From assembly GCA_016125285.1 (NCBI GenBank), contig WGMA01000016.1, positions 1-64,000 on the forward strand: 64,000 nt of DNA, given 5' to 3'. The DNA comes from Phycisphaera sp. (lineage in GTDB: Bacteria > Planctomycetota > Phycisphaerae > Phycisphaerales > Zrk34). The stretch's first letter is position 1; the number at the start of each line of letters is the position of its first letter. The position numbers were made by a program, and so were the translations under genes. Positions 118 to 36,522 of the stretch are shown piece after piece. The notes beneath the pieces were generated by a model that worked only from the letters and a program-made list of their open reading frames with translations, did not search any database and had not been told where the DNA came from.

Positions 118-159
118 GGCAACTATGCAATATCCTGCTTGGAGGGAGAGGGAGTGAAC

Positions 160-1317: not shown

Positions 1318-1332
1318 CGTTTGATCCAGTAG

Positions 1333-1367: not shown

Positions 1368-1428
1368 GGCGAGCACGCGGATCGGCCATCATAGTGTCCG
1401 TGGCGCGTCGATCAATGGCCGCGTTACA

Positions 1429-1788: not shown

Positions 1789-1791
1789 TGA

Positions 1792-1913: not shown

Positions 1914-1944
1914 TCGTGACTCGCGAGAGAGGTATGATCTCCCG

Positions 1945-2214: not shown

Positions 2215-2322
2215 GGAAATGCAAATTGAAAAATGCAAAATGCAAAATGCAAAATGTGCGCCCAGGTGCGGCGCGCATCCATTTTGCGATTTGCAATTCT
2301 CATTTTGCAATCTGCAATTTCC
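2215..2322. repeat. AT-rich palindromic intergenic repeat, copy B
   Basis: The left arm GGAAATGCAAATTGAAAAATGCAAAATGCAAAATGCAAAATG pairs imperfectly with the right arm (reverse complement GGAAATTGCAGATTGCAAAATGAGAATTGCAAATCGCAAAATGG). It starts immediately after the stop at 2214. Confidence 0.8.
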
Positions 2323-2343
2323 TCTTCAACGCGGAGTGTTCAC

Positions 2344-3435: not shown

Positions 3436-3453
3436 TAGCGGGCGCGTCGAGTA

Positions 3454-3591
3454 GGAACTGCAAATTGAAATTGCAGATTGGTCATTGCAAATTGCAAAGT
3501 GCCTGAAGCCTGCGGCTGCGATCGCAGTGGTGAACCTTATCGCTGGCACAATGATCCGTTTGCAATGCTCAATGATCAATTTGCAATTCCC
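3454..3591. repeat. AT-rich palindromic intergenic repeat, copy C
   Basis: It shares an identical 31-nt run (ttgcagattggtcattgcaaattgcaaagtg) with copy A and ends in the same tttgcaattccc terminus. It lies between the stop at 3435 and the start at 3622. Confidence 0.85.
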
Positions 3592-3621
3592 ATCTGGCGA
3601 CCGTGATACAATCCACGCACC

Positions 3622-5031: not shown

Positions 5032-5035
5032 CGGC

Positions 5036-5057
5036 GCGACCCGCCGAAGCGGGTCGC
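5036..5057. terminator. Stem-loop between convergent genes (candidate bidirectional terminator)
   Basis: GCGACCCGC-cgaa-GCGGGTCGC forms a perfect 9-bp stem. It lies between the stop at 5031 (+) and the stop at 5064 (-). There is no clear U-tract. Confidence 0.5.
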
Positions 5058-5063
5058 ACCGGG

Positions 5064-6137
5064 TTACGCCACGAGTTCTTCGGGGCGGTACTGCTCGAAC
5101 ATCTTCTTGTCCTGGGCCTTCATGTACGCGGCTTCGCCGGAGATGGTGCCGGCCTTGATGAGTTTCATCAGGCCCTGGTCCATCGTCTGCATGCCGTCAC
5201 GCGAGCCCATTTCGATCATCGACACGATCTTGGAGATGGCGCCGTCGCGGATCATCTGCGACATGCCTTCCTTGCGGACGAGGATCTCCTGGCAGGCGAC
5301 GCGGCCCTTGCCGTCGGCCTTGCGGAGCAGCTGCTGCGAGAAGATCGCGCGGACCGACTCGCTGAGCATCGTCCGGATCATGGGCTGCCGGCCGGAGGGG
5401 AACACGTCGATGATGCGGTCGATGGTCTTCGCGGCGGAGTTGGTGTGCAGCGTGCCGAACACGAGCAGGCCGAGCTCCGCGGCGGTCAGCGCGAGCGAGA
5501 TGGTCTCGAGGTCGCGCATCTCGCCGACGAGGATGACGTCGGGGTCTTCGCGGACGGCGGCGCGGAGGGCCTCGGCGAAGCCGTCGGTGTGCTGGCCGAC
5601 CTCGCGCTGCGTGATGACGGACTGCTGGTTCTCGTGCACGAATTCGATCGGGTCTTCGATGGTCACCACGTGCTTGGAGTATTCCTTGTTGACCTTGTCG
5701 ATGATGGCGGCGAGGGTCGTGGACTTGCCCGAGCCGGTCGGCCCGGTGACGAGGCAGAGGCCGGAGCGGTAGTGCGCGGCGTCGGCGATGGCGTCGGGCA
5801 GGCCGAGGTCCTGGCAGGTGAGGATCTTGTCGGGGATCTGACGGAAGACGGCGCCGTAGCCATGGACCTGCTTGAGGTAGTTGCAGCGGAAACGGGCGAC
5901 GCCCTCGAGGCCGTACGCGAAGTCGAGGTCGCCGGTCTTCTCGTACCGTTCCCAGAGGACCGGCTCGCAGATCTCGACGAGGTACGTGCGCAGCATGTCG
6001 CGCGTGAGGATGGGGTGTCCCTCGATGGGGTGCAGCTCGCCGTGCACGCGGACCTTGGCCGGCTGGCTCTGCAGCAGGTGCAGATCGCTGGCGCCGTTGG
6101 CTTTGACGTATCGGAACAGTTCGTCGATCTTGGCCAT
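5064..6137 (-). CDS. pilT: Type IV pilus retraction ATPase PilT
   Basis: 357 aa of canonical PilT size. It has Walker A GPTGSGKSTT, VTIEDPIEF, REDPDVILVGEMRD and GTLHTNSAAKTIDRIIDVFP. An RBS GAGAGG precedes the ATG. Confidence 0.9.
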   Translation of the reverse strand: MAKIDELFRYVKANGASDLHLLQSQPAKVRVHGELHPIEGHPILTRDMLRTYLVEICEPVLWERYEKTGDLDFAYGLEGVARFRCNYLKQVHGYGAVFRQIPDKILTCQDLGLPDAIADAAHYRSGLCLVTGPTGSGKSTTLAAIIDKVNKEYSKHVVTIEDPIEFVHENQQSVITQREVGQHTDGFAEALRAAVREDPDVILVGEMRDLETISLALTAAELGLLVFGTLHTNSAAKTIDRIIDVFPSGRQPMIRTMLSESVRAIFSQQLLRKADGKGRVACQEILVRKEGMSQMIRDGAISKIVSMIEMGSRDGMQTMDQGLMKLIKAGTISGEAAYMKAQDKKMFEQYRPEELVA

Positions 6138-6176
6138 AGTGTTTGCCTCTCGGGTCTAAGCGAGCGGTCGGGTGCC

Positions 6177-7829
6177 TTACTTGAATCGTCTGGGGTCCTC
6201 GGCGACCTTGATCGCCTCTTCCTTGTTGATCGTACCGCTCTGGACCAGCTCGTCGAGCGATTCGTCCATCAGCTTCTGGCCGACCTTGCGTCCGGTCTGC
6301 ATGACCGAAGGCAGCTGATAGGTCTTGGAGTCGCGGATCAGGTTGGCCACGGCGGTGGTGACGTAGAGGGTCTCGAGCGAGGCGACACGGCCGGAGCGGT
6401 CGTTCTTGCGCACGAGCTGCTGCGTGATGATGCCGCGGAGCGACCCGGCGAGCATCGTGCGGACCTGGGCCTGCTGGTCGGCGGGGAACACGTCGACGAT
6501 GCGGTCGATGGTGCGCGCCGCGGACTTGGTGTGCAGCGTGCCGATGACGAGGTGGCCCGTTTCGGCGGCGGTCATCGCGAGGCTGATGGTCTCCAGGTCG
6601 CGCATCTCGCCGATCATGATCACGTCGGGGTCCTCACGCAGCGCGGCCTTGAGCGCGGCGGAGAACGACTCGGTGTGCGGGTGCACCTGACGCTGCGTGA
6701 CGTTGCAGCTTTTCGACGGGTGCAGGTATTCGATGGGGTCCTCGACGGTGATGACGTGGTCCATGCGGTTTTCGTTGACGCAGTTGACCAGCGCCGCGGC
6801 GGTGGTGGACTTGCCACAGCCCGCGGGACCGGTCACGAGCACCAGCCCCTGCGACCACTCGGTCAGCGCCTCGAGGCTGTCGGGCATGCCGAGCTGCTGG
6901 AGGGTCGGGACCACGGACGGGATGATGCGGAGGATGATCGACGGGCCGCGGAACTGCATCAGCGCGTTGGCGCGGAATCGGCTGAGGTGGGGGTGTTCCC
7001 ACGACAGGTCGAGGTCGCGGTGCTCGGTGAAGATCTCGCGCTGCTCGTCGTCGAGGAAGCCCATGACCATGCGTTCGGCCATCTCGAAGGTGATGGGCGG
7101 TTCGTCGAAGAAGTGCAGCTCGCCGTGCAGCCGACAGAACGGTCGCGACCCGGCGGTGAGGTGCAGGTCGCTGGCGCCCATCCGGCAGGCCGTGTAGAGG
7201 AAACGCCACGCGTCGTCGTCGAGCCGGGGATCGTCGTCGGGCTTGGGCGGGACGTCGATCTTCGCGCCCGGCGCGGCGGGCTGCGCGCCCGGTCGGGGCG
7301 GCGCCGGCCGGTTCGGCGGCGGCGGTGGCGACGCGGCGGGGGGCGCGGCTTCCTCGAAGGAGAACTGCTTTTCCTCGACGGGCTCGGGCGGCGCCGGGGG
7401 GCGCGCCGCCTCGGCGGGATCGGTCGCGGGCACGACGTCGCCGAACAGCGCCGCGACGCGCTGGCCCACCTTCGCGACGACCGCGTCGTCGAGGAAGCCC
7501 TTGCGCTTGAGGATCCTGCGGATCGGCATGCGCCCGCCGGACTTCTCGAACTCCGAGAAGCACTCCTTCCACTGCTCGGGGGTGAGCAGCTTGTTGAGCG
7601 TCAGCAGGTTCTTCCACACGCGTGTCTCGACGATGACGCGCATGAGCGGGATCTTCTTCGGCGGGACCAGCCCGCTGGTCATCAGCATCGTCTGGAAGGG
7701 GATGCGGCCCTGCTGTTCCTTGAACTTGCCGACGACCTCGGCCCACTGCTCCTCGGTCATCAGGTTGTTCTGCATCACGACCTGATACCAGATCTGCAGG
7801 ACGATCTCGGTGCCTTGGGAGTCGCTCAC
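6177..7829 (-). CDS. PilT/PilU-family ATPase with a roughly 200-aa N-terminal extension (helical repeats plus Pro-rich linker)
   Basis: The C-terminal ~345 aa form a PilT core: GPAGCGKSTT, ITVEDPIEY, REDPDVIMIGEMRD, GTLHTKSAARTIDRIVDVFP and AVANLIRDSKTYQLPSVMQTG. The N-terminus has repeated ..EQW.E.. helices and PAPPEP/PPPPPNRPAPPRP. GTG start with a GGGAGGG RBS. Confidence 0.85.
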   Translation of the reverse strand: MSDSQGTEIVLQIWYQVVMQNNLMTEEQWAEVVGKFKEQQGRIPFQTMLMTSGLVPPKKIPLMRVIVETRVWKNLLTLNKLLTPEQWKECFSEFEKSGGRMPIRRILKRKGFLDDAVVAKVGQRVAALFGDVVPATDPAEAARPPAPPEPVEEKQFSFEEAAPPAASPPPPPNRPAPPRPGAQPAAPGAKIDVPPKPDDDPRLDDDAWRFLYTACRMGASDLHLTAGSRPFCRLHGELHFFDEPPITFEMAERMVMGFLDDEQREIFTEHRDLDLSWEHPHLSRFRANALMQFRGPSIILRIIPSVVPTLQQLGMPDSLEALTEWSQGLVLVTGPAGCGKSTTAAALVNCVNENRMDHVITVEDPIEYLHPSKSCNVTQRQVHPHTESFSAALKAALREDPDVIMIGEMRDLETISLAMTAAETGHLVIGTLHTKSAARTIDRIVDVFPADQQAQVRTMLAGSLRGIITQQLVRKNDRSGRVASLETLYVTTAVANLIRDSKTYQLPSVMQTGRKVGQKLMDESLDELVQSGTINKEEAIKVAEDPRRFK

Positions 7830-18373: not shown

Positions 18374-18625
18374 GTGCGTTGGCTTTGTCGATTCCTGACC
18401 GTCACGATCATGATCCTGCTGTCGAGTGCGCCGCTTCTGGCGCAGGAACCGGGCAAGGGTGAACGCGTCGTGGTCGATAGCGGACTGGGCACCGGCGGCA
18501 AGGCCGCGCTGATCATCTTTATCATTCTCGGCATCGCCGTGGTCGTCATGGGGATTCTGCTGTGGACCAGCGGCCAGAGCCGGCGCACCCGCGCGATGAA
18601 CCGCACGGGTATCCGGCGGTATTGA
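18374..18625 (+). CDS. Small hypothetical membrane protein (signal peptide plus one TM)
   Basis: GTG start preceded by AAAGGGGG. The sequence has LLSSAPLLAQEP, then the TM segment AALIIFIILGIAVVVMGILLW and a basic tail. No homology was recognised. Confidence 0.45.
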   Translation: MRWLCRFLTVTIMILLSSAPLLAQEPGKGERVVVDSGLGTGGKAALIIFIILGIAVVVMGILLWTSGQSRRTRAMNRTGIRRY

Positions 18626-18741
18626 CTTCGCGGTCACGTCTCGCGGCGGCCCTTGCTGTACACCGCCGCCCGATTGTTAGAATATGTTGCACGTCCAAAC
18701 GCGTACGGGTCCCGTCTTTCAGCCCTGAGGCACCGCATCGC

Positions 18742-19092
18742 ATGATCCTCGTCGCCACCTACAGCTCGCGCTATTGCGTCGCGATCAAGAAGTTCGTCGA
18801 GGACCTCGGCTATCACGCCCTGGCCACGACCGACGGCGAGGACGCCTGGGAGATCTACCGCGGCCGAAAGAAGGAACTCGAACTCGCCATCCTCGACGCC
18901 AACCTCCCGCACAAGTCCGGCGTGTCCATCATGCAGGAGATCCGCGCCGGCGATCCCAAGTTTCCGATCATCCTGCTCTTCCGGTCCGAGCAGAAGCACT
19001 TCATCGAGGAAGAGAACGTCCACTGCCTCAACAACCCCGTCGACCGGGAAGTGCTGCGCGAGCTCGTCATCGAAACGACGATGTTCGGCTGA
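18742..19092 (+). CDS. Stand-alone receiver-like (REC) domain protein, atypical
   Basis: ORF 18562-19092 trimmed to ATG 18742. It has an alpha/beta receiver pattern with the acceptor context LAILDANLPHKSG. It lacks the N-terminal acidic pair (ILVATYSS) and the conserved Lys (CLNNP). Confidence 0.6.
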   Translation: MILVATYSSRYCVAIKKFVEDLGYHALATTDGEDAWEIYRGRKKELELAILDANLPHKSGVSIMQEIRAGDPKFPIILLFRSEQKHFIEEENVHCLNNPVDREVLRELVIETTMFG

Positions 19093-19104: not shown

Positions 19105-20487
<1,383 letters not shown>

Positions 20488-20521
20488 GGCCGCAGTATAA
20501 CTTCGCGATCCTCACGATGTG

Positions 20522-20551
20522 GTGAAATTCACTAGCATTAGTGAAAATCAC
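20522..20551. promoter_or_regulatory. Candidate enhancer (UAS): two copies of an 11-bp near-palindrome
   Basis: GTGAAATTCAC (20522-20532) and GTGAAAATCAC (20541-20551). They lie about 70-100 bp upstream of the -24/-12 element and just upstream of the divergent activator gene. Confidence 0.55.
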
Positions 20552-20620
20552 TATATCCTCCAGGACATTAGAAAATACGTATCTTTATTAAATAAAGAGC
20601 ATTATGCGTAATTTTGGCTC

Positions 20621-20636
20621 TGGCACGTCTGTTGCA
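20621..20636 (+). promoter_or_regulatory. Sigma-54 (RpoN) -24/-12 promoter
   Basis: cTGGCACGtctgTTGCAt: TGGCAC at 20621-20626, a 5-nt spacer, and TTGCA at 20632-20636. This is a near-perfect match to YTGGCACGrNNNTTGCW. It lies about 50 nt upstream of ATG 20686. Confidence 0.8.
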
Positions 20637-20685
20637 TTGTGATAGGCGGGGAGAGCGACGATCACTGGAAGAAAGGATCAGAGGG

Positions 20686-21051
20686 ATGCATAGCTCCCGC
20701 AAGATATCGGTACGCGACTGGCTCACGAGACTGGCCATCCTCGGCATCGTCAGCTTCATGGTGATTGGCGCCGAGCAGGTCACGCTTCAGTGGACCTACC
20801 CCACGACGCTCAGCGAGCTGGCCGTTCAGCAGCTCGAGGCGTCGAACGACGTCGCCGAGGCGATGCGTATCCAGAGCGACCTGCGGCACACGCTGACGAT
20901 GGTCTGCGAGTCGCTGGTCGTGGCGGTCGCGCTGGTCCTGTTCACCGGCCCCGTAGTGGCGCTGTTCCAGCGTCGCACCTCCGACGAAGGCGCAGGCGAT
21001 CGCGATGACGACGCCGACGCCGCCGCGCTCCGGCGCGCGCGGGGCGCCTGA
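20686..21051 (+). CDS. Small hypothetical membrane protein (two TM) with an acidic tail
   Basis: ORF 20614-21051 trimmed to ATG 20686, which follows GGAAGAAAGGA..GAGGG. TM segments are LAILGIVSFMVIGA and LVVAVALVLFTGPVVALF. Confidence 0.55.
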   Translation: MHSSRKISVRDWLTRLAILGIVSFMVIGAEQVTLQWTYPTTLSELAVQQLEASNDVAEAMRIQSDLRHTLTMVCESLVVAVALVLFTGPVVALFQRRTSDEGAGDRDDDADAAALRRARGA

Positions 21052-21171
21052 ATCACCACCCGCCACTGAATCCTCGTTGACCCGTGCGCCAAACGTGCGC
21101 GCCGGGAAGACGCCTCACACCCACACGCGGCTCGGCCGCGCACGCTCACCGTACGTGAAAGGACACCGAAG

Positions 21172-22224
21172 ATGACACGCCAAACACTCAAACTGCTCGT
21201 CACGCTCACGCTCGTCGCCGTCATGACCACCGGCTGCAAGCCGTACGATAAGCCCGAATTCGAGGAGATTGACACCTCGGAGACCGGCTTCCTCATCCCG
21301 CTCGAGGGCGACACGACCAAGCAACAGTCGTTCGAGTCGGAGACCTACCTCGACCAGCGCAAGGTCGCGGCCAAGCGCGTCGAGATCCCGCACCGCTGGG
21401 TGCAGACCGGCCGCGCGTGGTGGGCCGGTCAGTGGATGGACATGGTCCGCCTGGTGAAGGTCGACCGCTCGCCGGTGACGCGCGAGTGGACCGCCGAGGC
21501 GACCAGCGGCACGTCGAAGGCGAACCAGGCGATCTGGATCGAGTCGAAGGACTCGGTCGGCTTCAGCGTCGGGTTCAACTGCACGGCGTACATCCAGGAG
21601 CCCAACACGGCCAAGTTCCTCTACATGTACCGCAGCAAGTCGCTGGCCGACATGATGGACACCGAGGTGCGTGCGCGCATCCAGTCCGTCGCCGCGGAGG
21701 TCGCCGCGGAGTACGACCTCGACGAGCTCCGCTCCAAGAAGCAGGAGATCATCGACAAGGTCCGCACCGATGTCATCCCGTTCTTCGAGCAGCGTGGCAT
21801 CAGCATCACCACGATCGGCATGTTCGGCGGGTTCACCTACCAGAACGTCGCCATCCAGAACGCGATCGACGAGACGTTCGTCGCGCAGCAGCTGAAGGTC
21901 GTGGCCGACGCGAAGCTCAAGGCGCAGCTCAAGGAGAACGAGGTGATCGAGCTCGCCGCGAAGGCCGAGGCGAACAAGGCCGAGACGATCGCCACCGGCG
22001 AGGCCGCCGCGATCACGAAGGTCGCCGAGGCGACGTCCAAGGCGCAGAAGGACCCGCTGTTCATCCAGCTGCGACTGCTCGAGGTCGAGAACGCCCGCAT
22101 CGCCAAGTGGGACGGCAAGTACCCCGTCTACATGATGCAGCTCGGCCAAGGCGACACCCAGACCCAAGCGCCGCAGATGCTCCTGCAGCTTCCTCCTGTC
22201 AGCGCGACCAGCGTGTCCCGCTGA
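21172..22224 (+). CDS. SPFH/Band-7 (prohibitin-homology) domain lipoprotein
   Basis: Lipobox LVAVMTTGC. An SPFH-like core is followed by an Ala/Lys/Glu-rich coiled coil (AKLKAQLKENEVIELAAKAEANKAETIATGEAAAI). The RBS is GAAAGGA. Confidence 0.65.
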   Translation: MTRQTLKLLVTLTLVAVMTTGCKPYDKPEFEEIDTSETGFLIPLEGDTTKQQSFESETYLDQRKVAAKRVEIPHRWVQTGRAWWAGQWMDMVRLVKVDRSPVTREWTAEATSGTSKANQAIWIESKDSVGFSVGFNCTAYIQEPNTAKFLYMYRSKSLADMMDTEVRARIQSVAAEVAAEYDLDELRSKKQEIIDKVRTDVIPFFEQRGISITTIGMFGGFTYQNVAIQNAIDETFVAQQLKVVADAKLKAQLKENEVIELAAKAEANKAETIATGEAAAITKVAEATSKAQKDPLFIQLRLLEVENARIAKWDGKYPVYMMQLGQGDTQTQAPQMLLQLPPVSATSVSR

Positions 22225-22267
22225 CCGCGAGCCCGCCGCTCGCTTGAGAGCCCTTCCGGGGCTTTCG

Positions 22268-22299
22268 GGAGCCGACCGTTAAGTCGGTCGGCTCCTTTT
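22268..22299 (+). terminator. Rho-independent terminator
   Basis: GGAGCCGACCG-ttaagt-CGGTCGGCTCC, a perfect 11-bp stem, followed by TTTT. Confidence 0.85.
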
Positions 22300-22349
22300 G
22301 AGAAGTCGCAACCCTGTGGATCGATCAGTCGATCAGATTGGAGACACCG

Positions 22350-22811
22350 ATGACACGCATGCCTGACGAATCGTTCGTGGACACCCGTGGGATTACGGTC
22401 CCGGTCGCGGTGGGCGGGCGGATGGTCGCGGCGCCGCTGCTGCCGGTGGTCAGCCCGCCGGTGTGGGCGGAGATCGGGTTGATCGCGGTGCGCGAGGGCC
22501 GGTTGGCCGTGGCGCAGCCGCCGCAGTGCGAGCCGCACCTGATCCTGTGGGACCCGGAGCTGGAGCGAGCGGCGTGGTCGATCCCGCTGGCGCGCGTCAC
22601 GGGCGTGGCGCACTTCGGCTGGTGGTGGTGGCGCACGTGTCGCCTGTCACTCGACGACGGCGAACGCGTGCTGATCCACGGCGACCTGGGCGACTTCGAC
22701 GTCCTGCTCGAATTCGAGCTCTGGCAGCGCGGCATGCCCCGCTACGACGCTGACGACCCGCGGTCGCTGTGGCATCCGACGCACTGGATCGACGTGGCGG
22801 AGAGGAACTGA
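22350..22811 (+). CDS. Hypothetical protein (Trp-rich, no recognised family)
   Basis: ATG 22350 lies 6 nt after GGAG. 153 aa. The stop TGA at 22809-22811 overlaps the next start (ATG 22811). Confidence 0.5.
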   Translation: MTRMPDESFVDTRGITVPVAVGGRMVAAPLLPVVSPPVWAEIGLIAVREGRLAVAQPPQCEPHLILWDPELERAAWSIPLARVTGVAHFGWWWWRTCRLSLDDGERVLIHGDLGDFDVLLEFELWQRGMPRYDADDPRSLWHPTHWIDVAERN

Positions 22812-23398
22812 TGAACGCGATCTGGAAAATGGCGACAAAGCGCATCAAAGTCAAAGAGTCGCGAGTGGTGTCTTGGTTGTGTGTCGGATTCTTTGTCGCA
22901 AGCGCCGTGTGCCTTGTAGCGAGCTTTTGGGGTTCGTTGTTTGGTCCCGAGGTCTTGGATTTACTTGGCGCGCTCGGCTTCTTCATCACTGTGATCGCTT
23001 TTTTGACCTCCGGGTCCGAGGCAGTACGTGATTACATCGCGAAGCGGCCACGCGGCCTCGCGCCTGATTGGCTACGACCGTGGCGTTGGTTCTTGATTGT
23101 CAGCGCCATAGTTTTAGCAGCGATCGTCATTGCGTCTGGAATCCCGATGTTTCTGTACGCAGATGGCGTTGCATCGAGTTCGGGTCCAGTGTTTGAGCAC
23201 CGTGCAGTGTACGAGTTGTGCAATCACGGCACGTATACCACCGTGTCGCGCTGGCGGTACCTGGTCGTGGGCACATCGTTCATCGTGGGGTGGCACGGCG
23301 GCATAGCCTTCATGGACCTGATCGGACTCATTTACTTGTTGTTCGGTGTCAAGAGATCCATGAATACGAAAAACAGCACCGAAGGAGGTGCGACGTGA
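22811..23398 (+). CDS. Hypothetical four-TM membrane protein, compositionally atypical
   Basis: ATG 22811 overlaps the preceding stop. There are four hydrophobic helices. The first 100 nt are about 51% G+C by hand count, and A/T-ending codons are frequent (aaa, ttt, tta, gta, tct). Confidence 0.55.
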   Translation: MNAIWKMATKRIKVKESRVVSWLCVGFFVASAVCLVASFWGSLFGPEVLDLLGALGFFITVIAFLTSGSEAVRDYIAKRPRGLAPDWLRPWRWFLIVSAIVLAAIVIASGIPMFLYADGVASSSGPVFEHRAVYELCNHGTYTTVSRWRYLVVGTSFIVGWHGGIAFMDLIGLIYLLFGVKRSMNTKNSTEGGAT

Positions 23399-24078
23399 AA
23401 AGGAAATTCTTTCAGTTTGTTCGCGTCCTGGCGGCGGTGTGCATGCTGCTGGGTGGGATTGGGTATTTCGGTTCGCTGTCGATCAACAACGGGTCGACGG
23501 ACTGGCTCGGCGACAACGTCGAGCTGCCGCTGGGGGACCTGACGGACGTGGAGGTCGACGGCGATGGCCACGTGTACTGCGCGTTGCAGGGTTACCACCG
23601 CGTGCAGGTGTACGACGCGGATGGGCGCTTCGTGCGCGGCTGGCAGGTCGAGTCGCAGACGGGGCGCTTCCGCATGCAGCTCGGCGATACGGGCCACGTC
23701 GAGGTCGCGACGCTGCGCGGCGACATGCTGTTCGTCTACGACACGAACGGCAAGCTGCTCGACGCACGCGACGGCGGTCACACGGCGTACTTCGCGTTCG
23801 GCGAGGGGCACGACCGCGTCGCGCCGCAGCAGGGGCGTGACGGTCACGTGTACCGCGTGGCCGACGCGCAGCTCTATCCGCACGTCGTGCGCTGCGACGC
23901 GACCGACGGCGGCGGCGCGAAGGAATCGACGGTGGTGTCGATGCCGTTCTACTACTGGCCGTTCATGGCGCCGGTGCCCGCGCTGCCGATGTGGATGGGC
24001 GGGATCTTCACGCTGATCCTCACGGACAAGCGTTACGGGGATTCGAGCAGCGTGGCGACGGCGGTGACGGCGGACTGA
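23395..24078 (+). CDS. Hypothetical membrane-anchored protein with a beta-strand repeat (NHL/propeller-like) ectodomain and a C-terminal TM
   Basis: GTG 23395 overlaps the stop at 23396-23398 (GTGA). The N-terminal TM is VLAAVCMLLGGIGYFG. Repeated motifs are DG.VY / DG.FV / NGKLL. The C-terminal TM is WPFMAPVPALPMWMGGIFTLIL. Confidence 0.5.
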   Translation: MKRKFFQFVRVLAAVCMLLGGIGYFGSLSINNGSTDWLGDNVELPLGDLTDVEVDGDGHVYCALQGYHRVQVYDADGRFVRGWQVESQTGRFRMQLGDTGHVEVATLRGDMLFVYDTNGKLLDARDGGHTAYFAFGEGHDRVAPQQGRDGHVYRVADAQLYPHVVRCDATDGGGAKESTVVSMPFYYWPFMAPVPALPMWMGGIFTLILTDKRYGDSSSVATAVTAD

Positions 24079-24160
24079 GCGCGGCGTGCGGCGCGACGCA
24101 TCTGCGCGCCGCGCCCGCTCACGCATGCACCGCTACGCATCGCAACGAAAGGAGACAACG

Positions 24161-24460
24161 ATGTCGAACGATCGAAACACTGGAACGGGTTGGTGGGCGA
24201 GCCTGTCCTGGCCGCACGCGATGATGTTCGCGTGGGTGGCGTTCAATCTGGCGATCGGCCCGCTGGTGATGTTGCCGCTGCTGCGTGACCTGATGTCGGC
24301 GACGCCGCACGACGCGCGGGGGCTGCCGATGGACCTGGCGCTCGGCTGGGCGAGCGTGTTCCTCGGCGTGCTGATCGTGCTGGTGATGGCCGAGCGGGTG
24401 CGCGAGCTGCTGCAGGCGCCGAAGCGACCGCGGCTGCGGCGCAGGCGCCGTCGCAAGTGA
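24161..24460 (+). CDS. Small hypothetical membrane protein with a poly-Arg tail
   Basis: ATG 24161 follows AAAGGAGAC. There are two or three TM helices. The C-terminus is KRPRLRRRRRRK. Confidence 0.5.
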   Translation: MSNDRNTGTGWWASLSWPHAMMFAWVAFNLAIGPLVMLPLLRDLMSATPHDARGLPMDLALGWASVFLGVLIVLVMAERVRELLQAPKRPRLRRRRRRK

Positions 24461-24482
24461 TCGCGCGTCGCGCAGTCGTTCG

Positions 24483-25979
24483 CTACTTGATCGACGCGAG
24501 CTTCGCGTCGAGCTTGGCTCGCATGTCGTCGAGGACCTGCTTGTGCTGCGGGTCCTCGGCGAGGTTGGTGAACTGGTGGGGGTCCTTTTCCATGTCGTAC
24601 AGTTCGACGCCGCTCTTGCCGTCGTTGTATACGATCAACGCCCAGCGGTCGGTGCGCAGCATGTGGTCGGCGTCGTTGCGCAGCGTGTAGACCGACTCGT
24701 GCACGGCGGGCGCGTGGTCCGGGTCATTGACGACGGACGCGAGGCTCTTGCCCTGCACGTGCGGCGGGATCGGCAGGCCGCAAAGCTCCGCGAGCGTGGG
24801 GTAGATGTCGATCTGTTGGCCGAGCGCGTCGGGCGCGCCGACGGGGCGACCGGGCGCGGCGACGATGAGCGGGATGTGCGTCGTCTCCTCGTGCAGGTGC
24901 ATCTTCTGCCACAGCTCGTGCTCGCCGAGCTGGTAGCCGTGGTCCGCGGTGAACACGACGATCGTGTTGTCGCGGAGGCCGAGCCGGTCGAGCGCGCCGA
25001 GGATCTTGCCGACCTGTGCGTCCATGTAAGACACCGCCGCGTAGTACGCTTCGAGCACCTTCTGCTTCTTGAGCGTCGTGTCGAGCCCGCGCTTCTGGCT
25101 GTCGTTGTGTCGCCCGGCTTCGGGGATGTCCGCTTCGTCGTTCTCCACGCTCAGCGCCAGCTTCATCTCCTCCGCGGGGTACGGCTCGAAGAACGACGCG
25201 GGCGCGACCAGCGGCACGTGCGGTCGCACCAGACCCACCGCGAGGAAGAACGGCTTGTCGTCCTTGCCGTGCTTCTCCAGCAGTTCGACCGCCTTCGCCG
25301 CGGTCTTGTGATCGGCCTGCTCCGTGCCATCGCTCGCGCCGCGCACGACGTAGAACGCGCTTCCATAACCCAGCGCGTAATGGATGTCGTGGTTCGGGTC
25401 GGGCTTGAGGCGATCGTGCGACAGGTGCTCGTGCACGCCCTCGGTCCACTGCTCGGGCGCCTGGCTGTTGAATCGTTCGGTCCACGACGCTTCGTGGTCG
25501 GGGCCGTCGACGCCCGCCGTGATGTCGCCCGGGACGCGCATGTGATAGATCTTGCTGACGCGCGCGGTGTAGTAGCCGTGGTCGCGGAACTGCTGCGCCA
25601 TGGTGGGGCGGTCGCCCATCCGCTTGGTGAAGCCGTTGGCCTGAGCGTTGGAGGTCACGCCGATCACCTGCGCGTACATGCCCGACATCAGCGCCGCACG
25701 CGACGGCCCGCACACGGGGTACTGGCAGTACACGCGTGTGAAGCGCGCCCCGCGCGCCGCCAGCGCGTCGAGGTTCGGCGTCTTGCACTGCGTGTTGCCG
25801 TAGCAGCCCAGCGATTGCGAGCCCAGGTCGTCGGAGATGATGAACAGCACGTTGGGCTTGCGGTCCGCGGCGCGCAGCGGCGTCACGCAGGCGAGCAGCG
25901 CGGCGGTGATGAGCACGGCGATCAGGCATGCAAGCGGGGCGGCATCGGAGCGGACGGATAAACGGTCGGGCGTCGTCAT
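24483..25979 (-). CDS. Cys-type sulfatase (formylglycine-dependent)
   Basis: ORF trimmed to ATG 25979. A signal peptide is followed by KPNVLFIISDDLG and the active-site motif CGPSRAALMSG. Confidence 0.9.
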   Translation of the reverse strand: MTTPDRLSVRSDAAPLACLIAVLITAALLACVTPLRAADRKPNVLFIISDDLGSQSLGCYGNTQCKTPNLDALAARGARFTRVYCQYPVCGPSRAALMSGMYAQVIGVTSNAQANGFTKRMGDRPTMAQQFRDHGYYTARVSKIYHMRVPGDITAGVDGPDHEASWTERFNSQAPEQWTEGVHEHLSHDRLKPDPNHDIHYALGYGSAFYVVRGASDGTEQADHKTAAKAVELLEKHGKDDKPFFLAVGLVRPHVPLVAPASFFEPYPAEEMKLALSVENDEADIPEAGRHNDSQKRGLDTTLKKQKVLEAYYAAVSYMDAQVGKILGALDRLGLRDNTIVVFTADHGYQLGEHELWQKMHLHEETTHIPLIVAAPGRPVGAPDALGQQIDIYPTLAELCGLPIPPHVQGKSLASVVNDPDHAPAVHESVYTLRNDADHMLRTDRWALIVYNDGKSGVELYDMEKDPHQFTNLAEDPQHKQVLDDMRAKLDAKLASIK

Positions 25980-26040
25980 GCGGCGATCCTTATGTGTTGG
26001 GTCTTGTAACAACGGCGCGACCGGAGGGCGAGATGGCGTG

Positions 26041-26787
26041 TCACCGCCCGAATCGATAGGTGTCGTCGTATTCGCGAGCGCCGCCGCCGTCGCCGTACTG
26101 CTCGTCGATGCCGGGCGAGATCAGCAGGTACTCCGCGGAACGGAGCGGGATGCTGAGGGTGTTGCGATCGGTCGCCGAGGCGGTGGTCCGCCAGTAGTCG
26201 ACGGGGTTGTCCGCGCCGACGAGCGTGTTGTTGTGCGCGAGGTTGAAGCGGCCACCGTTGTCCCACACGTCGGCCCCGGCGCCGCCGAGCGTGCCGGTCG
26301 CCCCGGCGTTGTCGGCGCGGTAGTAGAGCACGCCGCGTTTCGACTGGCTCGTCGCGACCGTCAGCACCCAGCGTCCCGGCGCGCTCTCGGCCAGCGTCTG
26401 CTTCTCGGTCTGGATGTTGAGGTACGGGCCGTACGACTTGCCGGTGAGCGACGCGTCCTTGGTCCACCCGTAGCCCATCTGGCCGTCGACGCCGTTGGGC
26501 TGCGGCCCGACGAGCGCCTGCGCGAGGATCTCGCCGCCGCTCCATGCGCCGAAGCAGATCGGCGCGGTGGCCTTCGTGTAGTCGCTGGGCGGGTAATCGT
26601 TGAAGTCGTTGTGGTAGGCCTGCAGCGCGATGCCGGTGTTCGTCAGCAGCTGCACCTCCCACGGGTTGGGCCTGATATTGGCGATGGTCGGGATGAGGAT
26701 GCCGAGCAGCGCGATGATGATCGCGATCACCACGAGCATCTCAACGATTGTGAACCCGCGGCGTGTGTGCGGCTGGTCGGTCGGCAT
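26041..26787 (-). CDS. Prepilin-type N-terminal cleavage/methylation domain protein (pseudopilin-like)
   Basis: ORF trimmed to ATG 26787. RRGFTIVEMLVVIAIIIALLGILIP is a class III signal with Phe+1 and Glu+5. Confidence 0.8.
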   Translation of the reverse strand: MPTDQPHTRRGFTIVEMLVVIAIIIALLGILIPTIANIRPNPWEVQLLTNTGIALQAYHNDFNDYPPSDYTKATAPICFGAWSGGEILAQALVGPQPNGVDGQMGYGWTKDASLTGKSYGPYLNIQTEKQTLAESAPGRWVLTVATSQSKRGVLYYRADNAGATGTLGGAGADVWDNGGRFNLAHNNTLVGADNPVDYWRTTASATDRNTLSIPLRSAEYLLISPGIDEQYGDGGGAREYDDTYRFGR

Positions 26788-26895
26788 GGCGTGTCTCCCT
26801 TTGCGGAATCGGCGATGGCCCCGTGCGTGATCTGCGTGCGGGATTATAGGCACGGGATCAGCCGGGCGACGGCGACGGGGCGTTGCCGGGAATCG

Positions 26896-29800
26896 CTATT
26901 TCGCGTCGAGGCATGTGATCGAGCCGTCGACGCCGCTGACATAGAGCTTGCGGTTGGCCGCGGCCATGCCGTTGAACACCGGCGGGGTGTCGAGGCGTGA
27001 CTCGAACAGTCGCTGGCCGGTCTTGGCGTTGACCACCCAGAACAGGGCGCCGCTCTTGCCCGCCCACGCGTCGCCCTCTTCCTTGATCTGCTTCTGAGTG
27101 ACCAGGTCGGAGAGCTTGCGGAACGCCTGCTCCTCGTTGACCGCGTCCTCCGGGCCGGACATGAACAGGTTGCCCTCCGACAGCACGAGGCCGCGGACGA
27201 ACATGGGGATGTCGGTCGTCCAGTCGTACGGCACGTCGAAGCCGGGCACGGCCTTTTCGGGCTCGGTGTTGGGCGAGCCTTCTCCGGCGGCGACCTCCGT
27301 CTCGCTCGCCCGGCCGTCGAACCTCAACGCCTTGCCCGCGCGGCCCGGCGCGGTGCTCGCACCGTCGACCGCGCCGTTGAGCTGGTTGCCCGACGCGTCG
27401 GTCGCCTTGCCGTCGTCGAACCCGAACGCGACGACCAGGCCGTCGGCGTCGGGCTTCGCGTCGGCGTCCGCGGGGGCCGCGGCGTCGGCTGCGATCTGCG
27501 CCTCGCTGCGCGCCTTGCGGTAGATCCGCACGTCGTCGATCAGCCCGGTGAATCCGACGGCGCGCTTGTACTCGCCGACCGGCGTCTCATCGTCCGTGCC
27601 GATCGACACGCCCTCGATCGGGTCCTTCGGCAGCGGGCCGTCGGCCCTGGCGGACGCGGCGAGCTTGCCGTCGATGTACACCTTGAGCGTTCCGTCGCCG
27701 TCGAGCACACCGGCGAGGTGCACCCACTTGTTTTCGTCGACCGTGTGCTTCGCCGTCGCGTCGGTGATCTTGCCACCGTTGCGCAGGGCGAATACGGGGT
27801 GTGCGTCGTCGAGATAGAGCGTGAAGCCCATCGCGCCGCCGCCGCGTGCGAGGATGACGCCGTCGGCGCTGGCGGGCTTGATCCACGCCTCGACGGTCAC
27901 CGGTGACTTGGCCGTCGACAGCTTCGGCGCGTTGGCGAGACGCACGACGGTCGACCCGGTCGCGTCACCCTTGCCCGCGTTGCCCTTGCCATCGCCGCCC
28001 TTACCGTTGCCCTTGCCCGCGTTCTTGTTGACCGGCGTCTCGCCGCGGCGGACCGCCGGGTTGCTAACGCCGCCGTTGTCCGGCACGTCCTGAGACGCGC
28101 CCTTACGCGGCGACGAGAACAGGTGGTTTTCCATCGGCGTGGTCCACTTCCAGTACTCGGGCTTGCGGCCGAACCCGTAGATCGTCGTGTCGTCCGACAC
28201 GAGCACGCGACCGGCCGGGGCGCTCTTGCCCGCGCGGTAGTAGCCCTGCCAGCCGCTGACGTACATCGTGCCGTACATCCAGTACGTGCGGTGCCAGTAG
28301 CTGTCGTCGAGGTAGCCGGTCGGGCTGAAGATGTGCGCGTGCTCGACACCCTGCACGGGGTCCGGCGCGCCCTGGTCGGCGTCGGCCTTACGCGGCATCG
28401 CGCTGAGCGGCAGGCGCTTGCCCGACAGGTCGAACGGCTGCGACCGCATGTACACGAACCGATCGTCGCACGACAGCACGTCCGGCAGGCCCACCGGCAT
28501 GTTCAGCCAGCTGACGAAGTCCGTGATCTTCTTGCCCGTGCCCTCTTCGCGGTCGTCCATCTTCGTGATGCTCAGCAGGCCGCCCGTCGCCGGGTCGAGC
28601 CGGTACATGCGGATGCCGCCGTCGAGGAACATCGACCGCCCGGCCACGCAGTACAGCACGTCGTTCTCGATCAGCACGCTGCCGTTGACCGGCCAGAGCG
28701 ATTCGATCTGATCGAACGACATCGTCCGTTGGTCCACGAACGCCGCGAGGAACCGCCACGCCAGCGCGCCGTCGCTCGCACGCAGCGCGTACACGTAGCC
28801 GTCGTTCGAGCCGAAGTACACGCGGCCCTTGTGGTACGTCGGTGGCGAGTCGACGCGGCCGCCTGAGGTGAACGACCACAGCGGCTTGCCCGTGTCGGCG
28901 TCGATCGCGTGCACCGTGTGCGTGTCGATCGACGCGACGAACACCTTGTGATCCGCCACGACCGGCGCGGTCAGCTTGCCGCCGATCGGCGTCTTCCACG
29001 TCGTCTGCAGCGACGTGGGCACGATCGTGCTGGCGTGGCCGCTGCGCTCGTTGTCGTGCCGGAACGTGGGCCACTCCTCGACGCTGCTGACGCGCGGGTC
29101 GTCGAGGTCGTAGCCCGGGCCGCGCGTCAGGCGTTTGTCGTCGGCGACCGGCACGAGCGGTTTGTCCGCGGCGGGCGCCAGGGCGTTGAAGCCCGACAGC
29201 TTGGCCTCGAGGTAGCAGGCGCAGGGATGTTGCGGAGCGTAGGTCAGTCCGTTGGCGGGCATCACGCCGTACAGGCACGCGCCGCGCACGAAGTGGTTCG
29301 TGTCCCAGCTCTCCTTCTTGACGTCGATGTACTCGATGCCGGTGCGCGACATCATCAGGTACTTGTCCGTCGCCTTGCCGCGGTAGCAGCGGTGGTGGAA
29401 CCAGTACGTCTGCACGTCCGGCTCGAACGACCGCTTCACCTCGCCGGTGCGCGGGTCACGCCCGGTGAACAGGCCCTCGGCGCGGCCGCTCGTCGTCTCG
29501 CCGGTCCACACCAGCCCGTCGACGACCATCAGGTCCTCCGCCGAGCGATAGCCCGAAGCCGGGTGCGGCGCGTTCCACAGCACCTTGCCCGTCGCCAGAT
29601 CCAGCGCGGACATGCTGTCGACGTCGCGGCTCCATCCGCCCGAGCCCGAGCCCGCCTTCTCGCCGCCCGCGAACAGCACCACATCCTTATAGATGACGAG
29701 CGTCGGCGAGAAGAACGGACGCATCTCGGCCGATCGCGCCACCGGTTCGGATCGCCACGCGACTTCGCCCGTGTCGCGCTTGAGGCACACGACGCTCTCT

Positions 29801-30954
29801 CCGTCGTGGAACACCGCGTAGGGCCCGCTGACGGCCAGCGTGTTCGGCAGGACCTTCTTCTTGTCCTCCCACAGCGGTTTGCCGGTTGCCGCGTCGAGCG
29901 CGATCAGCGCCCACACGTCCTTCTCGGTCCACGCCACGCCGCGGCGCTTGGCCAGCGCTTCCGCGCCCGGGTCGGACAGCCGCATCACCGAGTACACCAC
30001 GCCGTCATCGACGAGGATCTCGGCCGTGTTCTCGGTGCCCTTGTAGGTCAGCACGGTCTCGCCGGTCGCCGCGTCGATCGCGGTGATCGGGCCGTCGATC
30101 GTCATGGTCACGTACACGCGGTCGCCGACGGCGACGAGGCGTCGCGGCAGCTGCGCCGGGCCGTTCTTCAGCCCCCAAAGGTTCGGCTGCCAGTCGTCGA
30201 TGTCGCGCTTCCAGAGGATCGTGCCGTTGAACGCGTCGCGCGCGATCAGCTTCCACTCGGGCGGCAGCAGCACCGACACGCGGGGCGCCTCGTCGAAGAT
30301 CGTGAACACGCGGCCGTTCGCCGACACCATCGCGCTGAGGCTCGACATCTTGTCGTGGTGCCGCGAATACCGCGGGCCGGACACCCACTGCAGGCGGCGG
30401 GGCGGGCCGACCACCTCGTCGTGCGCCACCGCGTTGTTCGTCGGGTCGTGCAGGTAGTGCGTCCAGTCGTCGATGTTGCTCGGGCGCGGCTTGACGGTCT
30501 TGTTCCACGTGTCGCCGCTGCGGACCATCGCCACGCCGTTCGGCGCCAGCACACGCGTGACCTCCTCCATCGACACCGCGTCCGCATCGGAGACGACCAC
30601 GAGGTTGACGAGGTTGTCGATGAGCGGGATCGACCTGCCGTGGAGGTGATCGATCGTCACGCGGCCGTACGCGCCCAGCGCGTTGATGCGATCGCGTGCG
30701 GCGTTGACGTCCTTCGCGTCGGCGTCGAGGCCCAGCGCGTTGAAGCGTTCACCCGCCAGCGCCGCGGTGAGCTTGCCGTCGCCGCAGCCGACGTGCACGA
30801 TGAGCCCGCCGGTGACGCCGCTGGTGTCGAGGATCTGCTTCGCCTCCGCCGCGCTCGCGGCGTCCACTTCGGCGGCCATCGCTGCGCCGCTTCCGGCCAG
30901 CGTCAACAGCAGCATTCCGCACGCCACACGACAGAGCAACGCAGAGACACGCAT
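26896..30954 (-). CDS. Large secreted multidomain protein: class I methyltransferase-like fold, PQQ-like beta-propellers and a LamG/ConA-like domain
   Basis: ORF trimmed to ATG 30954, with signal peptide LLLTLAGSGAAMAAE. SAM motif I-like sequence LIVHVGCGDGKLTAAL is present. Many propeller blades follow. The LamG-like region includes VTVEAWIKPASADGVILARGG and LIDDVRIYRKA. Confidence 0.75.
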   Translation of the reverse strand: MRVSALLCRVACGMLLLTLAGSGAAMAAEVDAASAAEAKQILDTSGVTGGLIVHVGCGDGKLTAALAGERFNALGLDADAKDVNAARDRINALGAYGRVTIDHLHGRSIPLIDNLVNLVVVSDADAVSMEEVTRVLAPNGVAMVRSGDTWNKTVKPRPSNIDDWTHYLHDPTNNAVAHDEVVGPPRRLQWVSGPRYSRHHDKMSSLSAMVSANGRVFTIFDEAPRVSVLLPPEWKLIARDAFNGTILWKRDIDDWQPNLWGLKNGPAQLPRRLVAVGDRVYVTMTIDGPITAIDAATGETVLTYKGTENTAEILVDDGVVYSVMRLSDPGAEALAKRRGVAWTEKDVWALIALDAATGKPLWEDKKKVLPNTLAVSGPYAVFHDGESVVCLKRDTGEVAWRSEPVARSAEMRPFFSPTLVIYKDVVLFAGGEKAGSGSGGWSRDVDSMSALDLATGKVLWNAPHPASGYRSAEDLMVVDGLVWTGETTSGRAEGLFTGRDPRTGEVKRSFEPDVQTYWFHHRCYRGKATDKYLMMSRTGIEYIDVKKESWDTNHFVRGACLYGVMPANGLTYAPQHPCACYLEAKLSGFNALAPAADKPLVPVADDKRLTRGPGYDLDDPRVSSVEEWPTFRHDNERSGHASTIVPTSLQTTWKTPIGGKLTAPVVADHKVFVASIDTHTVHAIDADTGKPLWSFTSGGRVDSPPTYHKGRVYFGSNDGYVYALRASDGALAWRFLAAFVDQRTMSFDQIESLWPVNGSVLIENDVLYCVAGRSMFLDGGIRMYRLDPATGGLLSITKMDDREEGTGKKITDFVSWLNMPVGLPDVLSCDDRFVYMRSQPFDLSGKRLPLSAMPRKADADQGAPDPVQGVEHAHIFSPTGYLDDSYWHRTYWMYGTMYVSGWQGYYRAGKSAPAGRVLVSDDTTIYGFGRKPEYWKWTTPMENHLFSSPRKGASQDVPDNGGVSNPAVRRGETPVNKNAGKGNGKGGDGKGNAGKGDATGSTVVRLANAPKLSTAKSPVTVEAWIKPASADGVILARGGGAMGFTLYLDDAHPVFALRNGGKITDATAKHTVDENKWVHLAGVLDGDGTLKVYIDGKLAASARADGPLPKDPIEGVSIGTDDETPVGEYKRAVGFTGLIDDVRIYRKARSEAQIAADAAAPADADAKPDADGLVVAFGFDDGKATDASGNQLNGAVDGASTAPGRAGKALRFDGRASETEVAAGEGSPNTEPEKAVPGFDVPYDWTTDIPMFVRGLVLSEGNLFMSGPEDAVNEEQAFRKLSDLVTQKQIKEEGDAWAGKSGALFWVVNAKTGQRLFESRLDTPPVFNGMAAANRKLYVSGVDGSITCLDAK

Positions 30955-31153
30955 GGAAAACACTCCACTGGGGAACCGTCGATTCAACTCAAAAGCGGAT
31001 CACGACCGATCGTCAGCCGCGTGCCCGCAATCCAGTGTAGGCCGTCTTAACCTTTTAGGAAAACGGGGTCGCCCAGATACCCGCGTGCGTGCTAAAGTGG
31101 TTCACCTACCGACGGACTGGGCATTCGTCGATACCCCCAACCGGAGACGCCGC

Positions 31154-35820: not shown

Positions 35821-36051
35821 TTATTGCGTCGCGGTTTCGGGCTTCTTGGTGTTGCTGACGTTGATCACTTGCGGCTGCGTGCCGTCGGTGTCTTCACCGG
35901 GCGACGCAAACGCCGCGGCGGGCGCCTCCGTCGGGGGGCCCATGATGATCGGTCCCCGCGCGTTCGGCGCCGAACCGTTCTCCGAGCAACCGCCCAGCGT
36001 CAAAGCGAACACCGCGAACAGAATCGTGATGGAACCTGCGAGCCTCGACAT
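35821..36051 (-). CDS. Small lipoprotein
   Basis: ATG 36051 follows AAGGGA. MSRLAGSITILFAVFALTLGGC is a lipobox. I preferred it over the mirror-frame + ORF on RBS and n-region charge. Confidence 0.5.
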   Translation of the reverse strand: MSRLAGSITILFAVFALTLGGCSENGSAPNARGPIIMGPPTEAPAAAFASPGEDTDGTQPQVINVSNTKKPETATQ

Positions 36052-36522
36052 GACTATCCCTTTCAACACAACGGTATCAAATACCACTTGACGTGAATCA
36101 CTCAGCAAACCGGGTTGTGAGTCCCAATCCGCAAACCACTTTCGCCCGTGTGAGACGTGCCGGAACACGGAGCGAAATTGAACGCAACCGACTCGCCTGG
36201 CAAGGAAAATCCCAACGAAACCCCGTACAGGGAGCCTTGCAAGGCCGTCCGTGGGGTCAACACGCTTGAAAGAACGCATGTGACATCACGAACAAGAACA
36301 ACTTGTCTGGTTAGGTGCGGGTCGGCGCTGCTTGACCGTCAGGGAGGAGAGATGAATAAGGCCGGGTACTGAATAACCTGACGTTCAAATTTCAGCGCGT
36401 GTCTCGATTACCGCAAAGCAATGATGTGAAACTTCTACTTCCGTTACCAAATGAACAGTAGCAACGGTCGAAATGAGAGTCAACTATTTGGTTAAAAAAT
36501 TGGGCAAGTTCCATGCGGTATT

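Follow-up and report, generated by a model that had tools for sequence, protein, structure and literature searches.

Do four short genes joined by overlapping stop and start codons encode the parts of a single membrane complex? The question is raised by a cassette of four open reading frames (ORF1 to ORF4) in a 64,000-nucleotide (nt) stretch of DNA from Phycisphaera sp. (Planctomycetota; contig WGMA01000016.1, positions 1 to 64,000; hereafter, the window). An earlier reading made from the letters alone (hereafter, the sequence-only reading) described the products as a soluble Trp-rich protein, a protein with four transmembrane (TM) segments, a strand-rich ectodomain held between two TM helices and a small membrane protein, and took the tight coupling of the genes to imply stoichiometric co-production of a complex. 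These descriptions hold, and the overlaps are present in the sequence as reported, TGATG at 22809-22813 joining the ORF1 stop to the ORF2 start and GTGA at 23395-23398 joining the ORF2 stop to the ORF3 start. The proposed complex is not supported by comparison with relatives, none of which keeps the four genes. We conclude that the cassette is very probably a lineage-specific mosaic rather than a conserved complex. One of its products, ORF3, is a member of a family of doubly anchored NHL half-propellers, which belongs to a known superfamily, has a new architecture, is widespread and is unannotated. The fuller explanation, an operon pieced together from three independent modules in which ORF3 has an immunity-type role, stands in our estimation an even chance of being right.

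The conclusion on the mosaic is carried by the distribution of the genes. Co-occurrence was assessed by searching 44 fetched loci (designated L followed by a number) for the four proteins with tblastn; relatives of ORF3 were found in 12 loci, those of ORF2 in three, and those of ORF1 and ORF4 in L007 only. No locus combines different modules (ORF1/ORF4, ORF2 or ORF3), and the tetrad, the phylogenetic distribution of which the sequence-only reading had proposed to profile, stands together in no relative. In this GC-rich compact genome, the stop/start overlaps did not mark a conserved complex, and the comparative data revealed a patchwork. In compact genomes, neighbouring co-directional genes are most often joined by four-base overlaps, which are silent on complex formation.

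All four ORFs are genuine, evolving protein genes, because each has homologues; the failure of coding conservation that would have spoken against the sequence-only reading was thus not observed. The same four genes were predicted when an independent gene caller was applied to an identical Logan contig, and three of the four are present as hypothetical proteins in the NCBI record of the metagenome-assembled genome (MAG; Phycisphaera sp., GC159_06720/25/30). The NCBI start of ORF1 is the second Met at 22359, three codons downstream of 22350, which yields 150 amino acids (aa); the Logan gene call and a GGAGA motif at 22340-44, the Shine-Dalgarno-like site of ORF1, favour the 153-aa version. The G+C content at third codon positions (GC3) is 0.90-0.92 in ORF1, ORF3 and ORF4 (0.90 in ORF4) and 0.92-0.95 in the flanking genes, which supports these three frames as coding, and the long ORFs that compete with them on either strand do not show the right position-specific GC pattern.

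Relatives of the four proteins were not readily found. Scans against Pfam, NCBIfam, PADLOC and PHROGs returned nothing above thresholds (no match to the PADLOC models was better than E 0.023 for any of the four), and self-matches were all that ORF1, ORF2 and ORF3 retrieved from 5.8 billion proteins in a word-indexed search. The ORFan status that this would have conferred on the three proteins was overturned by an exhaustive HMMER search, in which the four proteins, concatenated, were compared with 1.84 billion cluster representatives, yielding 2,625 matches at E<1e-3. The best 150 of these 2,625 matches include one relative of ORF1 (P0124, 46% identity) and two of ORF2 (P0126 and P0128, 35-39% identity, E ~1e-25), whereas the relative of ORF4 was located through its context, adjoining the ORF1 relative in L007. 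A metagenome scan with the ORF1 alignment gave no match. The scan with a four-sequence ORF3 alignment (A6) led to 29 loci, among which only L010-L013 contain true family members; the remaining loci, such as L029 and L033, were set aside as encoding ordinary soluble or multi-blade NHL proteins. Plasmid searches with tblastn recovered only a generic SMP-30 protein with ORF3 and no match with ORF2, and neither family was found in scans of IMG/VR contigs. Searches of the Protein Data Bank (PDB) with profiles of ORF1, ORF2 and ORF4 revealed no relatives. The statement of the sequence-only reading that none of the products could be assigned to a family therefore stands for these three proteins and fails for ORF3, the only one of the four that profile searches place in a known family.

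The ORF3 family and its half-propeller architecture

Among the best 150 of the 2,625 matches, ~120 are proteins of ~200-260 aa and a further set are longer and contain one such unit; both size classes align to ORF3 end to end with 26-41% identity. The alignment of 62 family members displays a conserved hydrophobic N-terminal helix, the motif ELPLGxLxxIAVDxxGxIYCGxxFYxRIQVYDxxGxFxRGW followed by further repeats, and a C-terminal hydrophobic helix with the pattern PFPAWLF...G. A hydrophobic segment is present at the N-terminus in 60 of the 62 members and at the C-terminus in all 62; in ORF3 itself, the C-terminal TM segment is weakly hydrophobic on the Kyte-Doolittle scale and a long helix in the AlphaFold2 model. 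That model, built from the 62-member alignment, is confident, with a predicted local distance difference test (pLDDT) score of 90.8 and a predicted template modelling (pTM) score of 0.85. Two TM helices (aa 2-31 and aa 196-225) enclose its three blades (aa 49-181), and a short amphipathic helix lies between the blades and the second TM helix. The eleven strands are distributed over blade 1 (49-54/60-64/69-73/79-84), blade 2 (92-96/102-106/111-115/121-126) and blade 3 (152-156/163-167/177-181).

The family profile and the structure matches place ORF3 in the NHL-repeat propeller superfamily. The profile matches NHL-domain chains in the PDB with E values of 4e-21 to 1e-15 and several repeat matches in each, the range extending to 5e-13 when the TRIM-NHL and PknD proteins are considered together; the sensor domain of PknD is matched at 4.8e-13, and the top matches are the designed Pizza proteins. 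The motif of the ORF3 blades, hydrophobic-x-V-D-x-x-G-x-I-Y-V/C ... Y-x-R-I/V-Q-V-Y/F, agrees with that of the six-bladed NHL propellers (TRIM2, TRIM71 and Brat, and PknD of M. tuberculosis). In the model, the blades are radially arranged and four-stranded antiparallel, and can be superposed on NHL domains. Taken alone, ORF3 falls below every Pfam gathering threshold (19.6 versus 26.3 bits for SGL), and at E<0.01 the SGL model touches 20 of the 62 members and the NHL model one. We regard the half-propeller architecture as highly likely.

The form is nonetheless unusual: unlike the NHL propellers, which have six blades, each ORF3 chain has three blades and is anchored at either end by a TM helix, with hardly any sequence in the cytoplasm, and, in contrast to the TRIM-NHL and PknD proteins, the family has no kinase, RING or other effector domain. 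No six-blade ring is closed in one ORF3 chain, and about half of each six-blade target aligns. The cytoplasmic parts of the family members amount to a few residues, with no output or signalling domain. Because the N-terminus is rich in Lys and Arg (MKRKFFQFVR), the positive-inside rule would place the blades outside the cytoplasmic membrane. The NHL domain of PknD is likewise displayed outside the cytoplasmic membrane, and it is from this domain that the Pizza proteins were derived.

Since three blades cannot close a ring alone, two copies of ORF3 may pair into a six-blade propeller with a four-helix membrane anchor. Such pairing is hinted at by the tandem-fused protein P0010 and by self-assembling three-blade fragments. 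P0010 (336 aa) consists of a complete TM-three blades-TM unit, a short basic linker and the start of a second unit, and perhaps represents the proposed dimer in a natural single-chain form; its sequence probably stops at a contig edge. Cake3 and 6r5z were among the structure-search matches of ORF3, and in Pizza2, Pizza3, Cake3 and 6r5z (nine-bladed, formed from three 3-blade fragments), the ring is closed by oligomerization of fragments with like repeats. These are soluble laboratory constructs, whereas the ORF3 family is natural and membrane-anchored and its assembly is conjectural. In its plan, the family is a counterpart in nature of the Pizza fragments, which were designed and self-assemble.

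The TM/three NHL blades/TM plan is shared by hundreds of metagenome clusters and is not captured by any Pfam or NCBIfam model, and we found no description of such a family in the literature searched. The family is large and its members vary in amino acid composition. Some relatives are long forms, extended at the N-terminus by 2-4 additional TM helices or by a further domain; in P0036 and P0040, the extra N-terminal region resembles, by eye, DUF3592-type domains, which combine TM and beta elements. Directly 5' of the family gene in L011, on the same strand, lies a gene (107-466) for a soluble 119-aa protein (…WDPIGV…EYDNY…), which has no match in Pfam or NCBIfam.

Toxin-linked relatives and the immunity reading

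A possible role for the family is suggested by L013, the end of a 182-kb metagenome contig, where three short Rhs-core proteins (561, 524 and 515 aa) are encoded at 157-7828, each followed by a membrane-protein gene. All three contain the Rhs-associated core TIGR03696 above the cut-off (E 1e-16 to 4e-19). Beyond the DPxG cleavage motif, the toxin tails of the first two, CT1 and CT2, are related to each other (28% identity, E 4e-15), and within ~65-120 nt after them start the ORF3-family genes I1 and I2, respectively, the products of which are 31% identical to each other and each 30% identical to ORF3. The tail of the third protein, CT3, is unrelated to CT1 and CT2, and the next gene encodes a different, 131-aa two-TM protein. 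Across these three modules on one contig, the downstream gene appears to covary with the toxin tail, a pattern by which polymorphic toxin systems reveal their toxin-immunity pairs (PMC3482391). The CT1 and CT2 tails are hydrophobic and Gly-rich, and might act on membranes. The second and third Rhs proteins are 81% identical in their first 300 residues, so that the modules look like displaced or orphan units made by recombination.

Two known systems offer parallels. Tsi1 of P. aeruginosa, which confers immunity to the type VI amidase effector Tse1, is a periplasmic partial beta-propeller of three antiparallel sheets (PMC3391265); a partial propeller that neutralizes an incoming toxin outside the cytoplasm corresponds, in structure and in function, to what we propose for the ORF3 family. 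Tsi1 is, however, soluble and resembles the blades of DPP-IV rather than those of NHL proteins, whereas the ORF3 family is doubly membrane-anchored, so that the likeness concerns the proposed mode of action and not family membership. The cassette as a whole is reminiscent of the polyimmunity loci of polymorphic toxin systems (Zhang et al. 2012, PMC3482391) and of orphan immunity islands, known for ExiAB/ExiCD and the extracellular glycine-zipper toxin EsxX, against which the polytopic ExiCD proteins protect and for which non-producers carry orphan ExiCD genes (PMC12744356). Like these loci, the cassette is a compact same-strand array of small, unrelated and patchily distributed genes without a toxin, mixes soluble with polytopic membrane proteins and has a compositionally foreign member; in such islands, membrane immunity proteins guard against membrane-depolarizing toxins (PMC3482391; PMC12744356). 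It differs in that its products have no homology to the named immunity families in Pfam and NCBIfam, that no toxin, secretion system or integrase is encoded in the window, and that a toxin-linked relative is available for ORF3 only, on one contig. Beta-propellers were not found among immunity proteins by Zhang et al. (2012, PMC3482391).

Several observations weigh against the immunity reading. Among the eleven contexts inspected outside the window, in which the twelve ORF3 homologues were considered, Rhs association is seen in only one. Other relatives stand singly among housekeeping genes (enolase, tRNA synthetase, aminotransferase, RuvC, ComM-like): they lie between opposite-strand housekeeping genes in L008, L042 and L043-45, after enolase in L010, after unrelated enzymes in L012 and L040, between VWA and RuvC genes in L039 and, in the case of P0106, between ComM-like and Cys/Met-metabolism genes. 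P0106 and P0125, the closest full-length relatives of I1 and I2, are not beside toxins. The 64-kb window contains neither an Rhs core motif nor, in its large ORFs or those flanking the cassette, a toxin-like Pfam domain, and ORF3 does not share with I1 and I2 the position directly after a toxin C-terminal domain that immunity genes occupy. Nothing ties ORF1, ORF2 or ORF4 to toxins, and the dimerization of ORF3 is itself conjectural. An orphan immunity-type binder is our best guess for ORF3 in this particular genome, yet one that we consider somewhat unlikely to be right.

The same contexts lend weight to a more conservative view, in which the ORF3 family comprises ordinary envelope proteins (periplasmic ligand-binding or sensing proteins, or organizers of the envelope), the Rhs pairing in L013 is a specialized offshoot and the four genes of the cassette are unrelated accessories sharing a promoter. 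Ten of the 11 other contexts are of the housekeeping kind with no toxin, NHL propellers do serve as extracellular sensors, as exemplified by PknD, and a large family of varied composition fits such roles. Nevertheless, the family has no output or signalling domain and only a few cytoplasmic residues, and the tandem covariation of toxin tails and downstream genes in L013 is hard to obtain by chance. On balance, we deem this view rather unlikely.

At its most ambitious, the immunity reading would make the ORF3 family a widespread unrecognized class of immunity proteins, the doubly anchored half-propellers of which would dimerize to a six-blade ring on the periplasmic face and intercept membrane-inserting Rhs or other polymorphic toxins, with most copies, including ORF3, serving as orphan pre-emptive defence and the operon in the window representing a polyimmunity-type islet that grows by insertion. 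This generalization is a bolder proposal and a doubtful one. Were the Rhs pairing found to be general, it would define a new structural class of toxin immunity and the first immunity family built of NHL or, more broadly, beta-propeller repeats, and would turn the ORF3 family into a marker by which orphan immunity genes could be recognized in Planctomycetota and other phyla. Even without such generality, the family offers a clean target for work on half-propeller assembly on membranes.

A probable mosaic of three modules

ORF1 and ORF4 appear to be an older part of the cassette. In L007, a JGI metagenome contig syntenic with the window, an ORF1 homologue (50% identity over 83 aa) extends to the contig edge. 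Its stop is separated by 42 nt, in which AAAGGAGG lies, from an ORF4 homologue (45% identity over 77 aa, E 2e-15), and next comes a convergent sulfatase gene whose product is 65% identical to that encoded in the window; the ribosome-binding site and start region of ORF4 are kept at the DNA level. Between the two loci, ORF1 and ORF4 diverge faster (42-50% identity) than the adjoining sulfatase (65%); they seem to form an ancestral pair. No counterpart of window positions 22811 to ~24140, that is, of ORF2 and ORF3, is present in L007. The core of ORF1 (~aa 43-126) is possibly a PH-like fold, of which a seven-stranded beta-sandwich capped by a C-terminal helix is typical; the AlphaFold2 model of ORF1 is of low confidence. 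ORF4, with two TM segments and a charged C-terminus, was considered as a candidate holin and rejected: no PHROGs match was better than E 0.026, no phage genes lie nearby and the poly-Arg tail is missing from the L007 homologue.

ORF2 appears to have a different history. With a GC3 of 0.668, it ranks last among the 42 frames of the 64-kb window that are probably coding and have at least 150 aa (median ~0.90), and the GC content over the ORF2 region is 0.52-0.58, compared to 0.67 overall. Because of this foreign composition, ORF2 is probably a recent arrival. Its homologues, which conserve the TM3-TM4 loop DGVAsxxxPVFEHRxxYELxxHGxYTTVSRxRY, stand alone on three short contigs (L005, L006 and L009) with 58-62% GC; their visible neighbours are a GNAT acetyltransferase, a Tat-signal protein, opposite-strand genes and an unrelated 101-aa membrane protein. 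The second-lowest GC3 in the window (0.68) belongs to the frame at 35824-36285 (-), the C-terminal part of which is lipoprotein-like (…LTLGGCSENG…) and which may be another recent acquisition.

ORF3, by contrast with ORF2, is native in composition, which renders a joint arrival of the two genes improbable. This bears directly on the possibility that ORF2 and ORF3 came together, between ORF1 and ORF4, as a two-gene module and function as a working pair, the four-TM protein being a partner akin to a split long-form family member. Their joint absence from L007, the GTGA overlap with a strong Shine-Dalgarno-like site for ORF3 inside ORF2, and the extra N-terminal TM helices of the long-form relatives could all be accommodated in this way. 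However, GC3 values of 0.67 versus 0.90 suggest different residence times, unrelated genes come next after the ORF2 relatives in L006 and L009, and no ORF2 relative lies beside any of the 12 ORF3 relatives, nor does any relative of ORF1 or ORF4. The candidate origin of ORF2 as a split-off N-terminal domain was likewise rejected: phmmer found nothing, and the comparison of the ORF2 profile with the N-terminal TM domain of the long forms by hhalign gave a probability of 0.5%. We consider such a pair unlikely to a marked degree.

The prospects of a fixed-stoichiometry membrane complex of all four products, enforced by translational coupling, are poorer still, and we judge it very improbable. The ORF1/ORF2 and ORF2/ORF3 overlaps and the shared transcription unit are real and three of the four products are membrane proteins, yet co-occurrence is lacking in every relative, the ORF1 and ORF4 homologues of L007 adjoin without ORF2 and ORF3, the codon usage of ORF2 is foreign, and the ORF3 relatives are monocistronic in several loci.

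The mosaic explanation would account for these observations in a few steps. An older ORF1-ORF4 bicistron beside the sulfatase gene, still kept in a relative, would have been joined by ORF3, a descendant of a widespread stand-alone family, the half-propeller of which would sit on the outer face of the cytoplasmic membrane; paired ORF3 would close a six-blade ring and form a platform for binding proteins or ligands. ORF2, a rare four-TM protein of foreign composition, would be the most recent addition. The stop/start overlaps would then reflect compact insertion into an existing operon and not stoichiometric assembly, and ORF3, perhaps along with ORF2, would act as an orphan immunity-type protector of the envelope, the half-propeller capturing or blocking an incoming toxin at the membrane surface. 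Two considerations temper this scenario: with a single syntenic relative, a deletion of ORF2 and ORF3 in the L007 lineage is indistinguishable from their insertion in the lineage of the window, and the native GC3 of ORF3 suggests that ORF2 and ORF3 need not share a history.

Layout of the unit and neighbouring genes

The features of the cassette are collected in Table 1. The hydrophobic segments were counted on the Kyte-Doolittle scale, which detects none in ORF1 and four in ORF2.

Table 1. Features of the four-gene cassette and its upstream boundary (window coordinates)
Feature	Position	Strand	Description
Intrinsic-terminator hairpin	22267..22299	+	Closes the upstream small-TM/SPFH operon; upstream edge of the unit
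ORF1	22350-22811	+	ATG start; 153 aa, 10 Trp, soluble
ORF2	22811-23398	+	195 aa, four TM segments
Segment with ORF2, ORF3 and ~60 nt	22811..24140	none	No counterpart between the ORF1 and ORF4 homologues of L007
ORF3	23395-24078	+	GTG start; 227 aa
Half-propeller-coding part of ORF3	23539..23937	+	Three blades, predicted to face the periplasm
ORF4	24161-24460	+	99 aa, two-TM hairpin, C-terminus RRRRRRK

The four genes are probably read as one transcript. Shine-Dalgarno-like sites precede ORF2 (GGAGAGGA, 22799-806), ORF3 (GAAGGAGGT, 23381-89) and ORF4 (AAAGGAGA, 24148-55), the last within the 82-nt gap (24079-24160) that separates ORF3 from ORF4, in agreement with the sequence-only reading, which had assigned the fourth gene a ribosome-binding site of its own. 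That reading was also correct as to the length and Arg-rich end of ORF4; the start that it implied, 24162, is off by one base. Its delimitation of a compact unit between a terminator and a convergent sulfatase gene is confirmed as well: the terminator has a G+C-rich 12-bp stem (22267-22296) with a 6-nt loop, followed by a T-run to 22299, the 125-nt spacer at 22225-22349 folds with -61.2 kcal/mol (z = -4.1 versus shuffles), and the convergent gene downstream of ORF4 is a sulfatase (Pfam, 8.5e-53). A scan for the sigma-70 consensus, which is uninformative for this phylum, detected no promoter 5' of ORF1, an Rfam scan of 20000-26500 gave nothing credible, and neither around the cassette nor around ORF2 and ORF3 did a repeat search detect direct or inverted repeats that would mark the edges of a mobile element.

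Upstream of the terminator lies a small-TM and SPFH/Band-7 lipoprotein operon (~20680-22224, +), divergent from a gene for a response-regulator-type sigma-54 activator (19105-20487, -). The AT-rich gap between them (GC 0.44) contains a perfect sigma-54 promoter, TGGCACGTCTGTTGCA, at 20621-20636 (+), the sole zero-mismatch match in the 64 kb; the true start of the small-TM gene must lie further 3', because the mechanical TTG start at 20614 precedes the promoter. The activator/small-TM/SPFH trio, which has the appearance of a Psp-like membrane-stress module based on SPFH, is kept in three other Planctomycetota MAGs (L002-L004). The notion that the cassette is a read-through extension of this module, prompted by the sigma-54 promoter driving same-strand genes just 5' of it and by the membrane association of the products, is scarcely credible, given the strong hairpin terminator between the two units and the retention of the trio without the cassette in the three genomes, where the orthologues of the SPFH operon (74, 69 and 45% identity) are followed by other genes and by none of the four.

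The frame at 18481-19089 (+), which has a reduced GC3 (0.76) and lies immediately upstream of the oppositely oriented sigma-54 activator gene, encodes a protein whose C-terminal half resembles a stand-alone receiver domain (MILVATYSS…DGEDAWEIY…). On the other side of the cassette, a protein with a prepilin-type N-methylation motif is encoded beside a 1,363-aa methyltransferase/PQQ-propeller/LamG protein (26041-30987, -), and a DUF1552 gene is paired with a PSD/PSCyt (DUF1592/1588/1585/1595) gene (46832-50881, -); both are typical of the gene content of Planctomycetota. A second sulfatase is encoded at 55040-56791.

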